From Escherichia coli (GTDB lineage Bacteria > Pseudomonadota > Gammaproteobacteria > Enterobacterales > Enterobacteriaceae), in assembly GCF_041248615.1 (NCBI RefSeq), contig NZ_CP158426.1: 64,000 nt of DNA, one strand, 5' to 3'. Shown here in pieces: positions 6,001 through 12,000 of the stretch; positions within the stretch are counted from its first letter, which is position 1; every line of letters begins with the position of its first letter. Position numbers: made by a program.

Positions 6001-9000
6001 ATATACCCGCAGGGTTTGAACCAGACATTTATTTGTTGAAGTCTAAGATCCAAATGGAAGCATTTATATCCCTCAGATATTATGCGTTGACGGGTTGATA
6101 AAGATACTTTTAGAGGGTTAATAAATGGAGAACGTATAATAAATCTCTTAAACAAACTATAACCTGTACTAATGAAAAAAATGGGAATAGATAAGTTAAT
6201 AGCCTATTCTAAAAATGGTAAAGTGGTTTTACTTCCAAAATAATGGAGTTTAGTATGAAAATCGAAGCTAATTCCCTTACTCATCCCTATGACTACAACG
6301 CCTCACTGAACAATTATTTACATTATTTTGAGAATTTCTCTCGTAATGACTGGAATAAAGATTCATGTGGAGGATATTTTACTTTTAGAGATGATGACAG
6401 AGAGTGTGTTTTGTTTTTTGTGAATTATGGTGATAATTTTTCATTGCGCTATGATTGTACACAAAGTTCTGATGGAATAGTGTCATGCTGGTATAGTAAC
6501 CATGAAGATGATAAAATGAATATCATCGTCGATGCTGATACAGAACAATTTATCCCTTTAGGTTCTTGCTTACCTCCTGATATTACTTTATCAGTAATAA
6601 AAGATTTTTTCAAAAATCCTTTAGAGAAATCAAAAAAAGTAAAATGGATGAATGCAGATGACATTGACTGGTCATCTGTGTATTAAAGTTGGATTGGATA
6701 ATTATCTGTTTCAAAAATCATTAAATTTAGAACCTATCTGTTCAACAGAGCTGCCTTGAACAGCAGGTTCTTTTATGATGTCCAGGAGCGAATATGCCTG
6801 TGATGTCTGGCACTCAGCATCTGACTGACCTGGACTACTGATCCTACTCACACAGGGAGCTAGACCTGGAAGCAACCTACTGTAAGCAGTGCAGTAGCAG
6901 CCCACCTCACATCAGTCCTTGCAAGGTGTGGGCCTTTGTGATCTTGCTCTGTATTGCTGAGATCCTCAGGAAGGACTCGAAATTTAATCAGGAAGGCCGT
7001 TGCTAAAAATCAAAAAATAAATTCAAGAGCAATTTCTAAAACTTTTGAATCTACTGTATCGGATGAGGTTTTCACTCCTTTCCAAAAGGTGAGTTTTCAA
7101 GCATTCAAGTTTCTGTTATGACCAAAACTTCACCATTTAACACTAATCCGAGTATTATGTTACCATGAAGAAAAAAGATATTAGATTTGCAATATCCATT
7201 AACTCCAACTCAAGTAAGATAGAATTAATGGAAAAATTAAAAACATAATCCCAGGGCTTATTGAAATAACTCCCAGTGCATTAAGAGAAGAAAAAACATG
7301 GTAGTTATTGAAGATAATGATCTTTATGACCCTATAAAAGCAGAGGGAGTTGATGGATGGATGTATTATAAATTCATATTATCCATATTCCCATTAAAGG
7401 GAGTAGACACAACATTAGAATATCAACGGGAATTATCTTTTCTTTTCTTAAAGAAATTAAAAGATGCGGGTCTGTTAGGTGAACTTATATGCGAGGATGA
7501 TTTTCATGACTGATGACCTCTACATATATCCTCAGTTCGTGGCTGGTATTACATGATCTGACAGGGAAAGATCGTAGCGAAATCAAAAAAGACGTGGATT
7601 TCCCGGAAGCCGGTGAAGACACAGCGCTCTGCGACAAGGAGACTAAACCGCCGAGGATAACCCAGGGCAGCAGCAACGTTTTTATCAACAATCAGCCCGC
7701 CGCGCGCAAGGGGGACAAACTGGAGTGCAGTGCGGCGATCGTGGGAGGTTCGCCGGACGTCTTTATTGGGGGTGAGCAGGTCACCTATCTGGATATCCAG
7801 CCGGAGTTCCCGCCGTGGCAGAGAATGATCCTGGGGGGAATAACGATAGCCAGCTATCTTCTGCCGCCAGCGCAGGGAAAGATCACGTAACGCTGCTTTT
7901 TTGTACTAAATAATTCGCACTAAATGTTCAATAATTGAGATATTCCTTATTACCTAAATACAGTTCCACCAAGATTACCTAAACCCAAATGAGGTAAAAG
8001 ATAGTGGGTATGAATAAAAATGAAATCCATTTCCCTATAGGATATGGTTGGTTGAATGAAAAAAAAATTATTGGCACCAGTGAATTTAGCCAATTAGAAC
8101 CATGGTTTTATCTAGATGAGAACAGGTGTTTTTTTGCGAATAAAAAATGGCCAAATGTCATAGGTGAACAATTATTCGCTTTTGCTAAACGTCAAGATAA
8201 TGATGAATTGGCTTGTTTCAAAATTAATGAATCTGGAGTCTGTGAGGGTGTTTATTTAATTAATGGGTGGACTCCTAACGGGTTTGATATTATACAATTT
8301 TACCCTGATTTTTGGGAATGGGTACATTTGGTTATACAAGATGTCTCGGAGTGGATTGATAATAAAGGATAATTTGAAACAAAAGTAAAAAACCGCCTTC
8401 ATTGAAGGTAACGTGGAGTGGTGGGCGGAGCAGCCTGCCCGCAGACACAGACTACCCGGACCCGCGCGGGGAGCGGGACGCGGAAGCCGACCCCGGCCTG
8501 CTGTATGCAGGACAGTGGCAGGATGCGGAATCCGGACTGTGCTATAACCGGTTCCGGTATTACGAGCCGGAAACCGGGATGTACCTGGTGAGTGATCCCC
8601 TGGGGTTGCTGGGGGGTGAGCAGACTTACCGGTATGTGCCTAATCCTAGTGGGTATGTTGATCCTCTGGGATTAGCAACGTGTCCTATACTCAGACAGTG
8701 GGCGCTGACTAACCTTGAAGCCAGTCGGGCAGCAAGGGCTGCATCTAATTTTGGTAAGCCTCTGGTCCAGCGAAATAAAACGATTGGCGATAAAGTAAGG
8801 GATATGATTGCCAAAGAGAGGGGAACCACTCTAATTGAACAAAATTATAGAGTGACAGGAGGATTAAAGCGTATTGACGTTGTTGATGGAGTAACGGGTA
8901 TAGAATCTAAAGTCGGTCGAACAGGGTTAACAACCCGAGTACGGCAAGAGGTAGCGCGGGATATTAAGATTTTGAGAAGTGAGCAACTTGATCAAATTGA

Positions 9001-12000
9001 ATGGGTGTTTACAAGAAGTTCAACTACAGGGAAGATTGGGCCAACTAAACCACTTGAAGATCTTTTAAATAAACATGGTATACCGATTATTTATCGATAA
9101 GGAGTGATAGTGTGAAACTCAAACCGATTGGTGACTTTTTAAACAAAAATGGGTTTATAAAAAATGGTAACAATGATTTTTATAAAGTTCATGATAAGTT
9201 TGTAAATTGTATAAATTTTCAAAAAAAGAGTACAGGTGATATTTTTTTTATAAACACAGGTGTTCATCCTGTGTTCGAAAATTTTTGCAATGAACCACCG
9301 AAAAAAGAAATAGATTGTTACATCCGTAACCGTGTGTGTGATGGACTAAGTATATCTTTGCTGCATTCTTTTGAAGGTAGTGAGTTTGTTATCAGTGAGA
9401 TAAAAAACAAAGCGTTTTGTTTTTTTGAATACTTTGATTCATTGAATAAAATATTCGATGCTATTCGTGTTGTAGATATTGAAGAGAGAAATATTTGCGA
9501 TGAGCTAAGTGGTGTAAGCAGCGTAAGATTAGCTTTGATGTGTATGAACTACCAGTATGAGAAAAAAAAATTTAGCCTTGTTTCTGATTTTGCGAACTAT
9601 GGTCTTGCTATATCTAGAGGCCCGGTACCGAAAAAAGCATTGGATTTGCCCCTATATTTCCAGACACCTGTTATCACTTAACCCATTACTGGCCTGCTGC
9701 CGCAGATATTCCCGTGGCGAGCGATAACCCAGTGCACTATGCGGATGCCATTCGTTATAATGCTCGAACGCCTCTGCAAGGTTCTTTGCTGCCGTTAACC
9801 CGTCTGGTTTAGGCATGATACTGATGTAGTCACGCTTTATCGTTTTCACGAAGCTCTCTGCTATGCCGTTACTCTCCGGACTCCGCACCGCCGTGTTCTT
9901 CGGTTCAAGCCCCAATATCCGGGCAAACTGCCGTGTTTCATTAGCCCGGTAGCATGAACCATTATCCGTCAGCCACTCTACTGGAGACGCCGGAAGCTCG
10001 TTGCCGAAGCGGCGTTCCACCGCTCCCAGCATGACGTCCTGTACTGTTTCACTGTCGAAGCCGCCCGTAGTGACTGCCCAGTGCAGTGCCTCACGGTCAC
10101 AGCAGTCCAGCGCGAACGTGACTCGCAGTTTTTCTCCGTTATCACAGCGGAACTCGAACCCGTCAGAGCACCATCGTTGATTGCTTTCTTTCACGGCCAC
10201 TTTGCCAGTATGTGCCCGTTTCGATGGCGGTACAGCGGTTTTTCGCTCAAGCAACAGCGCATTCTGGCGCATGATCCGGTAAACACGTTTGGCATTGATC
10301 GCAGGCGTACCATCAAGTTCGGCCTGTCTGCGAAGCAGCGCCCATACCCGACGATAACCATACGTGGGCAGCTCTCCGATAACATGGTGTATACGGAGAA
10401 GCACATCCGTATCATCTGAGTGACGGCTGCGGCGACCATCTTTCCAGTCATCGGTTCGTCTGAGAATTACGTGCAACTGCGCACGCGACACCCGGAGACA
10501 ACGGCTGACTAAGCTTACTCCCCATCCCCGGGCAATAAGGGCGCGTGCGCTATCCACTTTTTTGCACGCCCGTATTCAACGGCTTCTTTAAGGAGTTCAT
10601 TTTCCATCGTTTTTTTGCCGAGCAGGCGCTGGAGTTCTTTAATCTGCTTCATGGCAGCAGCAAGTTCAGAGGCAGGAACGACCTGCTCTCCTGCGGCCAC
10701 AGCAGTAAGACTTCCCTCCTGGTATTGCTTGCGCCAGAGAAATAACTGGCTGGCTGCCACACCGTGTTGCCGGGCAACAAGGGAGACCTTCATTCCCGGT
10801 TCAAAACTCTGCTGAACAATAGCGATCTTTTCCTGTGTAGTACGCCGTCTGCGTTTCTCCGGTCCTAAGACATCAATCATCTGCTCTCCAATGACTAGTC
10901 TAAAAACTAGTATTAAGACTATCACTTATTTAAGTGATATTGGTTGTCTGGAGATTCATGGGGCCAGTCTAAGCATTTAAGGATATGATAAAAATAACAG
11001 AGTGATACCTAATCCGGTGTAATACTTGCTGCCTGTGTACCGCGAAGATTAACGGCCGGGAGGAAACTATTCTCTACAACCGGGACGCCACAGGCCGCCT
11101 GGCAGAAGTCATCACGCCGGAAGGCAAAACGCAGTATGCGTATGACAAATCCGGCAGGCTGACGGGTATCTTCAGCCCGGACGACACATCACAGCGCACC
11201 GGCTATGAAGAACGCGGGCGGGTGAATGTCACCACTCAGGGCAGGGAAAGATCATCCAAAGTACACTTTTTGTACTAAATAATTCGCATTTTATGTTTAA
11301 AAATTGAGATATTCCTCATTACCTAAAGCTGTTTTTATTGCTTATACATGATCAAATACTCCTTACATAATTAAGGAGAACAAAATGGAACTTAAAAAAT
11401 TGATGGAGCATATTTCTATTATCCCCGATTACAGACAAGCCTGGAAAGTGGAACATAAATTATCGGATATTCTACTGTTGACTATTTGTGCCGTTATTTC
11501 TGGTGCAGAAGGTTGGGAAGATATAGAGGATTTTGGGGAAACACATCTCGATTTTTTAAAACAATATGGTGATTTTGAAAATGGTATTCCTGTTCACGAT
11601 ACCATCGCCAGAGTTGTATCCTGTATCAGTCCTTCAAAATTTCACGAGTGCTTTATTAACTGGATGCGAGATTGCCATACTTCAGATGATAAAGACGTTA
11701 TTGCAATCGATGGAAAAACACTCCGGCATTCTTATGACAAGAGTCGCCGCAGGGGAGCGATTCATGTCATTAGTGCGTTCTCAACAATGCACAGTCTGGT
11801 CATCGGACAGATCAGAACGGATGAGAAATCTAATGAGATTACAGCTATCCCAGAACTTCTTAACATGCTGTATATTAAAGGAAAAATCATCACAACTGAT
11901 GCGATGGGTTGCCAGAAAGATATTGCAGAGAAGATACAAAAACAGGGCGGTGATTATTTATTCGCTGTAAAAGGAAACCAGGGGCGGCTTAATAAAGCCT

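Follow-up and report, generated by a model that had tools for sequence, protein, structure and literature searches.

The repeated sequence beside truncated Rhs fragments in an Escherichia coli array corresponds to the left end of the H-repeat insertion sequence

The window analysed here, a stretch of 64,000 nucleotides of Escherichia coli DNA (contig NZ_CP158426.1 of assembly GCF_041248615.1), has its position 1 at position 4726 of comparison locus L001 and carries an Rhs orphan array, i.e., partial cores with alternative C-terminal tips lying downstream of a full PAAR-rhs gene (Table 1). The first orphan rhs is a product of C-terminal displacement, and the 2,960-bp unit that holds its duplicated core is missing from strain ST2747 (L002). 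Farther along, the PAAR-rhs internal fragment corresponds to positions 2886–3185 of L001, i.e., nucleotides 718–1017 of the main gene, with 96% identity. The DUF4304 gene is presumed, from its position after a toxin tip, to be an immunity gene. The IS2 copy that interrupts this gene had been counted originally as part of the rearrangement signal, a view which is dropped here: it is a recent, clean, strain-specific insertion without any relation to the repeat. Its 5-bp target duplication is intact, it is missing from ST2747, just one record has IS2 at this site, and the same array without IS2 is found in at least 96 genomes.

Table 1. Features of the Rhs array and its right flank (window coordinates)
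Feature	Position	Strand	Evidence or remark
Main PAAR-Rhs gene, 3′ part (core and C-terminal tip 1)	1–2303	+	ORF; annotated RHS repeat-associated core protein in L001
Orphan rhs, duplicated core and tip 2	2903–5233	+	2961–4817 98% identical to 1–1857
H-rpt right-end remnant	6906–6951	+	equals H-rpt 1245–1290, 78% identity
Candidate 12-nt left-end stub	7562–7573	+	equals first 12 nt of H-rpt left inverted repeat, CAGGGAAAGATC
PAAR-rhs internal fragment, 300 bp	7573–7872	+	PF05488, E = 5.7e-12
Repeat copy 1	7873–7958	+	solo 86-bp H-rpt/ISEc1-type left-end stump, type B leader
Hypothetical ORF, 122 aa, no family match	8004–8372	+	directly downstream of stump
Orphan Rhs core end and toxin tip 3	8402–9100	+	TIGR03696; 8431–8758 94% to 4570–4897
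DUF4304 gene, 3′ end interrupted by IS2	9112–9681	+	ORF and family match
IS2, 1,331 bp	9641–10971	-	target duplication AGCAT, 9636–9640 and 10972–10976
Rhs core remnant, 211–212 bp	11031–11241/2	+	94% to 316–527 and 3276–3487
Repeat copy 2	11242–11327	+	left inverted repeat and first part of 5′ leader of intact IS, type A leader
Intact H-rpt/ISEc1-like IS (ISAs1 family), 1,290 bp	11242–12531	+	copies compared across genomes
ISAs1-family DDE transposase, 378 aa, intact	11385–12521	+	NF033564, PF13808, PF01609
nfrB, chromosomal backbone right of Rhs island	12719–14956	+	ORF and annotation

The boundaries of the intact H-rpt were obtained by comparison with 5,426 complete E. coli genomes. A query of 11000–12700, which besides the IS also covers the core remnant and the nfrB-upstream flank, gave 30,895 matching places in 5,425 of these genomes. 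Among the matches listed, H-rpt homology begins at about 11242 (query positions 238–246, mostly 243), and those without homology to the nfrB-side flank stop at about 12531. Both limits are shared with copies at the yhhI, ydcC and nfrB loci, i.e., in different contexts, and the matched copies are annotated as ISAs1-like ISEc1 transposase, yhhI or ydcC. Profile matches to the transposase (11385–12518) include NF033564 at 411.8 bits (cut-off 70), PF13808 (E = 7e-34) and PF01609 (E = 3e-29). The left inverted repeat reads CAGGGAAAGATCA... and the right one ...TAATCTTGCCCTG, the reverse complement of the latter (CAGGGCAAGATTA) being identical to the former at 11 of 13 positions. Judged from its sequence, the stretch 11242–11327 thus works as the left terminus of an intact IS, with which the vgrG/PAAR-Rhs island ends beside nfrB. 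The original prediction had placed this copy before the H-repeat transposase and had called it a recombination scar; the gene does follow, but the unit is the left terminus of the H-repeat IS itself, and only the copy at 7873 can be kept as a scar. A target-site duplication points to a simple insertion that is still fresh, and membership of the ISAs1 family does not depend on it. Comparison of the flanks of 11242–12531 gave no such duplication, which is read as a rearrangement after insertion. To our knowledge, H-rpt has never been seen to transpose in E. coli.

The repeat itself is real and lies 2–3 nt from where it was first placed (7875–7960 and 11240–11330): the 86 nt common to both copies are 82.6% identical (E = 2.9e-19, BLAST of the IS against the window). 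An internal repeat search pairs 7868–7958 with 11237–11327 (91 nt, 82%), but the five additional left bases (CAGCG vs. CAGGG) are flanking PAAR or Rhs-core sequence, and their likeness, outside the shared unit, is happenstance. With copy 1 as the query, 25,507 matching places were found in 5,337 genomes, spanning query positions 6–91, i.e., exactly the 86-nt unit. Copy 1 is collinear with positions 1–86 of complete H-rpts, beginning exactly at the IS terminus, and is 82.6–97.7% identical to ten H-rpt left ends, with values of 97.7% for the RhsB-locus H-rpt of strain E1, 96.5% for the nfrB-linked copy of O55:H7 and 93% for K-12 H-rptC2. Left ends elsewhere are thus about 93–98% identical to copy 1, compared with just 82.6% for the resident IS, showing that copy 1 belongs to a different H-rpt lineage and is no local duplication. 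The locus has indeed been rearranged repeatedly, as had been proposed, but with 96.5–97.7% identity elsewhere against 82.6% here, the two copies do not come from one repeated event.

Beyond position 7958 no H-rpt homology was detected, a local alignment of 7959–8400 to H-rpt positions 87–1290 scoring 27 as against 32 ± 5 for shuffles, and tblastn with the transposase against the window gave no extra transposase fragments, including downstream of copy 1. Copy 1 is thus a truly truncated remnant of an H-rpt left end. As predicted, it follows a PAAR fragment, which it abuts directly at 7872/7873, and copy 2 follows a core remnant of about 200 bp. The homology to PAAR extends to 7872 and that to the Rhs core to 11241/2, so that the core remnant is cut off exactly at the IS terminus. 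Both copies therefore stand where truncated Rhs pieces end, as had been claimed of a breakpoint; the unit is no independent breakpoint motif, however, since the homology to H-rpt copies in other genomes starts at 11242. The repeat is not a generic element unrelated to these boundaries but an H-repeat boundary.

The stump most likely has no function. Co-option of 7873–7958 as a promoter or leader for the downstream orphan genes (8004–9681) is quite improbable, although the stump lies 45 bp upstream of the first ORF, a weak promoter-like site, TTGAGA-18-TACAGT (9/12), spans its 3′ junction (7935–7964), and the structure is kept in at least 96 genomes. That conservation is explained by shared descent (99–100% identity), and consensus promoter-like sites are not enriched in the region, where 10 were found compared with 12.7 expected from shuffles. 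The best promoter-like site of the intact IS (11343–11371) lies downstream of the shared 86 bp. Moreover, a search of 6600–12800 against Rfam at E ≤ 1 found no known RNA family, and folding of both repeat copies on both strands gave z-scores of −0.6 to +1.5, i.e., no fold signal.

Other H-rpt vestiges lie nearby. The right-end remnant at 6906–6951, which possibly reaches 6884 with gaps, retains the reading frame and the position of the stop codon and terminates in the inverted-repeat sequence ...GATCTTGCTCTG; upstream of about 6884, no H-rpt homology rises above shuffle level. The 12-nt stub abuts the left edge of the PAAR fragment. It could be a coincidence, since the same 12-mer has a second exact match, probably by chance, at 61630 inside an unrelated ORF. 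Truncated H-rpts are also found elsewhere, i.e., as the tandem pieces 1–380, 1–1290, 25–910 and 1224–1290 at K-12 RhsC and as the pieces 1–530 and 1244–1290 at comparison locus L009.

The flanks of H-rpt differ on the two sides. Seven nfrB-linked loci have five different left flanks and just two types of right flank, i.e., the right flank is conserved in two forms, whereas the left, Rhs-side flank is strain-variable. No target duplication was found at any full-length copy with both flanks compared (the window, L002–L008, L010 and L011), so that no copy is demonstrable as the product of simple transposition. Because of the conserved right flank, the variable left flank and the missing duplications, the H-rpt IS end does mark rearrangement junctions. 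It is very improbable, however, that the 86-bp unit is an IS-independent Rhs recombination signal at which arrays are cut and rejoined. Such a signal would fit the position of both copies, precisely where truncated Rhs pieces end, and the strain-dependent Rhs-side flank of the unit. Yet every full-length H-rpt copy examined starts with the unit as its first 86 bp and has a matching inverted repeat at the far end, the unit is present at the ydcC H-rpt (L011) with no Rhs adjoining, and it is associated with no recombinase besides the IS transposase.

The repeat is therefore best explained as the left terminal 86 bp of H-rpt, at one place the end of an intact IS and at the other a stump of another lineage, a reading which, together with insertions followed by deletions and recombination as its probable history, is given a probability of about 0.93. 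The structure probably arose through IS insertions and then through deletions that began at the IS left end or just within it, while Rhs core repeats recombined homologously (C-terminal displacement), which together would explain why truncated Rhs pieces end at H-rpt termini. A second H-rpt, of the other lineage, would once have joined the PAAR-rhs gene at 7872/7873 and later have lost everything past its position 86. The presumed ancestral state, i.e., a complete H-rpt following directly on a PAAR gene truncated at 7872, was searched for with a chimeric query of 100 nt PAAR and 200 nt H-rpt and was found in none of the 5,426 genomes, the two full-coverage matches having the IS 412 bp further downstream. 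The history of the stump by insertion and then deletion in situ is thus one that we infer rather than observe.

It is rather unlikely that the H-rpt left terminus is more than a passive scar, i.e., an active transposase-dependent joint. If it were, the deletion or capture of Rhs orphan modules would take place exactly at the left inverted repeat or a few bases within it. The turnover of Rhs toxin arrays would then be driven by ISAs1 activity, which would leave short left-end stubs behind as footprints. The candidates for such footprints are 12 nt at 7562, 18 nt at position 4794 of L009 and 86 nt at 7873. The fixed backbone-side and variable Rhs-side flanks at the nfrB and RhsB loci also fit an active joint.

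That the left end at 7873 and the right end at 12531 bound a 4.66-kb composite, mobilisable by the resident transposase with the orphan toxin and DUF4304 gene as cargo, is scarcely credible. Both ends are correctly oriented with an intact transposase between them, but among the matches listed 7959–8450 occurs in one chromosomal context only, always behind the same PAAR fragment, no target duplication is present at 7872/12532, and H-rpt transposition has not been observed so far (PMC3032704). Chance similarity or an assembly artefact is dismissed by the E value within the window and by the same arrangement in independent complete genomes.

The repeat, read as an H-rpt left end, is real but ordinary: a well-known IS end that matches the Rhs/H-rpt biology known since 1993. 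An apparent recombination motif proves to be an IS terminus, with little import beyond annotation. Gained are the exact coordinates of one intact H-rpt, three vestiges and one IS2, and part of the order of events is fixed. The sole wider point is the asymmetry between the variable Rhs-side and the fixed backbone-side flank of H-rpt; if this holds at population scale, an apparently inactive IS family would be tied to the turnover of T6SS toxin arrays.

H-rpt, also called ISEc1, is an ISAs1-family element of the Rhs loci of E. coli that was reportedly described by Zhao et al. (1993, J Bacteriol 175:2799); it is represented by yhhI at RhsB, ydcC at RhsE and ybfQ/ybfL/ybfD at RhsC. The present copy resembles the known ones in its length (about 1,291 bp), single 378-aa ISAs1 transposase, CAGGG... 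inverted-repeat termini, location (the distal edge of an Rhs locus) and DNA identity of 95–97% to the K-12 copies, and the truncated and tandem fragments resemble those of K-12 RhsC. There is no difference in kind. This copy lies at the nfrB-cusS Rhs locus, i.e., locus 4 of Jackson et al. 2009 (PMC2935791), an empty site in K-12. What is specific to this locus is a matter of detail, namely the 86-bp stump, the 12-nt stub and the 46-nt right-end remnant.

IS-mediated adjacent deletions are classically known from IS1 and other DDE elements. One fixed flank, the other variable from the exact IS terminus, and no target duplication are features shared with such deletions. For H-rpt they would be putative, and the stumps, which have kept the terminus but not the IS interior, call for another type of deletion. 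The array also resembles the Rhs orphan arrays formed by C-terminal displacement (Jackson et al. 2009, PMC2935791). Here, too, partial cores with alternative tips and small, presumed immunity genes come after a main PAAR-rhs gene, and the 2,960-bp unit with its 98% core duplication is present in the window but missing in ST2747. H-rpt, insertion sequences and transposases did not turn up in a term search of that paper, which thus appears not to invoke IS ends, whereas several module boundaries of the present array fall at IS termini.

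The repeated rearrangement claimed in the original prediction holds in so far as real junctions exist and rearrangement of the locus has been recurrent, but its "breakpoint sequence" is simply the left end of H-rpt/ISEc1, an insertion sequence (IS) that has long been known. A repeat search of the window aligned 7868-7958 with 11237-11327 as direct copies (91 nt, 82%), and a BLAST search of the full window with the downstream element paired 7873-7958 (copy 1) with 11242-11327 (copy 2; 86 nt, 82.6%, E=2.9e-19), both of which bear out the predicted repeat at two sites, whose coordinates were 2-3 nt off. 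The PAAR fragment ahead of copy 1, the core remnant ahead of copy 2 and the H-repeat transposase gene after it are likewise present, as listed in the table.

Features around the two repeat copies (window coordinates)
Feature	Position	Evidence or remark
PAAR fragment	7573-7872	PF05488, E=5.7e-12
IS2	9641-10971	between the two repeat copies
Rhs core remnant, 211-212 bp	11031-11241/2	94% identity to 316-527
Transposase gene, ISAs1 family	11385-12521	NF033564, PF13808, PF01609

To define the IS boundaries, 5,426 complete E. coli genomes were searched with window 11000-12700; all but one (5,425) gave matches. Among the matches listed, H-rpt homology starts at ~11242 (query 238-246, mostly 243), and matches without homology to the nfrB-side flank end at ~query 1532, i.e., window 12531 (a few at 1517-1536). 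These shared starts and ends therefore delimit an element of 1,290 bp (11242-12531), and copy 2 accordingly makes up the initial 86 bp of this resident IS, covering the left inverted repeat and the beginning of the 5′ leader. The H-rpt matches, K-12 yhhI and ydcC included, are annotated as "ISAs1-like element ISEc1 family transposase". The 378-aa ORF of the resident IS matches NF033564 (ISAs1 family transposase) with 411.8 bits (cut-off 70) as well as both PF13808 and PF01609, and the IS ends are imperfect inverted repeats (left, CAGGGAAAGATCA; right, reverse-complemented, CAGGGCAAGATTA). We take the resident IS to be H-rpt, or "H-repeat". H-rpt was reportedly described together with the K-12 Rhs elements by Zhao et al. 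1993, J Bacteriol 175:2799. Two further readings of the repeat were rejected, i.e., a structured RNA and an IS-independent Rhs recombination signal, the latter because the unit is the first 86 bp of every full-length copy examined. Judging from sequence, one repeat copy is predicted to be functional, and the other is a stump from a different lineage.

Used alone as a query, copy 1 had 25,507 matches across 5,337 genomes, a median of 5 for each genome, and these span query 6-91, which is exactly 7873-7958; it is a left end from the same IS family as the resident H-rpt. The PAAR-rhs homology (96% to nt 718-1017 of the main rhs gene, 2886-3185 of extracted locus L001) ends at 7872, abutting the first base of the copy 1 IS terminus at 7873. 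Downstream of 7958, H-rpt homology is no higher than shuffle level, and no transposase fragment was found. Copy 1 is therefore a solo left end of 86 bp. Its identity is 97.7% to the H-rpt of the RhsB locus in strain E1, 96.5% to the nfrB-linked H-rpt of O55:H7 and 93% to H-rptC2 of K-12, vs. 82.6% to the resident IS (11242). The left-end differences are concentrated in two leader patches (~positions 13-25 and 48-62), each with two allelic forms (window 11254-11303; loci L002-L011) that occur in recombinant combinations among H-rpt copies, and outside these variable patches H-rpt is 95-97% conserved. The left-end identities and the two-form patches indicate that the stump derived from a different H-rpt lineage, not from duplication of the resident element. 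The 10-mer ATTACCTAAA closing the stump (7949-7958) is found again 16 nt downstream (7975-7984), and this recurrence may be a microhomology trace left when a deletion shortened the IS.

The IS termini coincide with junctions, and in that sense the repeat copies mark rearrangements. Rhs-side flanks are of five kinds among seven nfrB-linked loci (the window, L002 and L004-L008), vs. only two forms of the backbone-side flank; the asymmetry recurs at the RhsB locus, where the right flank is common to L009 and L010 but the left is not. In strains JX21CE33 and CFIAFB20190167, the main rhs gene runs directly into the IS and is truncated by it. No target-site duplication was found in any full-length copy with both flanks compared, including the ydcC copy of strain AR_0055 (L011 4001-5291), a complete H-rpt flanked by ansP and yddH, with no adjoining Rhs sequence. 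We infer that the flank and junction patterns arose from deletions beginning at the IS left end, in combination with homologous recombination among the core repeats. The presumed stump ancestor, with PAAR cut at 7872 followed by a complete H-rpt, was found in no genome. Rhs C-terminal tips are accompanied by H-rpt, whose transposition is unobserved (PMC3032704). A 4.66-kb composite transposon spanning 7873-12531 is unsupported, since its target duplication is absent and its cargo occurs in only one context among the matches listed. The stump may conceivably have been co-opted to serve the orphan genes downstream as a promoter, but support for this does not exceed chance level.

In E. coli, cusS and nfrB flank this vgrG / DcrB-like / PAAR-Rhs island, which corresponds to locus 4 among the Rhs loci of Jackson et al. 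2009 (PMC2935791); its identity to NZ_LT599825 is 99.5-100%. The ~45 bp from the IS right end to nfrB-upstream sequence (12532-12576) are absent in genomes without the island, and other strains carry there a different sequence, ~72 bp longer. Window 1-1857 is repeated at 2961-4817 with 98% identity, and a unit of 2,960 bp, made up of an Rhs core end with tip 1 and one small gene downstream, lies ahead of the 98% identical core copy. Strain ST2747 is without this unit and carries the second tip directly on its main rhs gene; the duplication in the window is a recent C-terminal displacement. IS2 retains an intact 5-bp target duplication, AGCAT (whole span 9636-10976), and interrupts the 3′ end of a DUF4304 gene; it is absent at this site in ST2747, and only one complete genome record has it there. 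Its insertion is the latest event and unrelated to the repeat, with which the original prediction had grouped it.

Other H-rpt vestiges were found. A right-end remnant at 6906-6951 (H-rpt positions 1245-1290, 78%), possibly starting already at 6884, keeps the reading frame and stop-codon position; weak rhs vestiges lie just upstream at 6796-6818 (87% to core 1591-1613) and nearby at 6738-6778 (80% to L001 3645-3685). A 12-nt stub (7562-7573), CAGGGAAAGATC, is identical to positions 1-12 of the left inverted repeat and borders the PAAR fragment precisely on its left side; the main rhs gene is unrelated in sequence there. The same 12-mer recurs exactly at 61630-61641, within an ORF on the minus strand (61266-61943) and at a distance from any IS, where it is probably due to chance, although only ~0.2 matches are expected per window (one mismatch allowed); a chance origin of the stub is therefore also possible. 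An 18-nt left-end stub at L009 4794-4811 (RhsB locus, strain E1) is followed 211 bp further on by an H-rpt of a different leader type. Each of the two short stubs thus has a further H-rpt left end 200-300 bp downstream, and the DNA between is foreign. Truncated and tandem pieces are normal among H-rpts, as in K-12 RhsC ([1-380][1-1290][25-910][1224-1290]) and in L009 ([1-530][1244-1290]).
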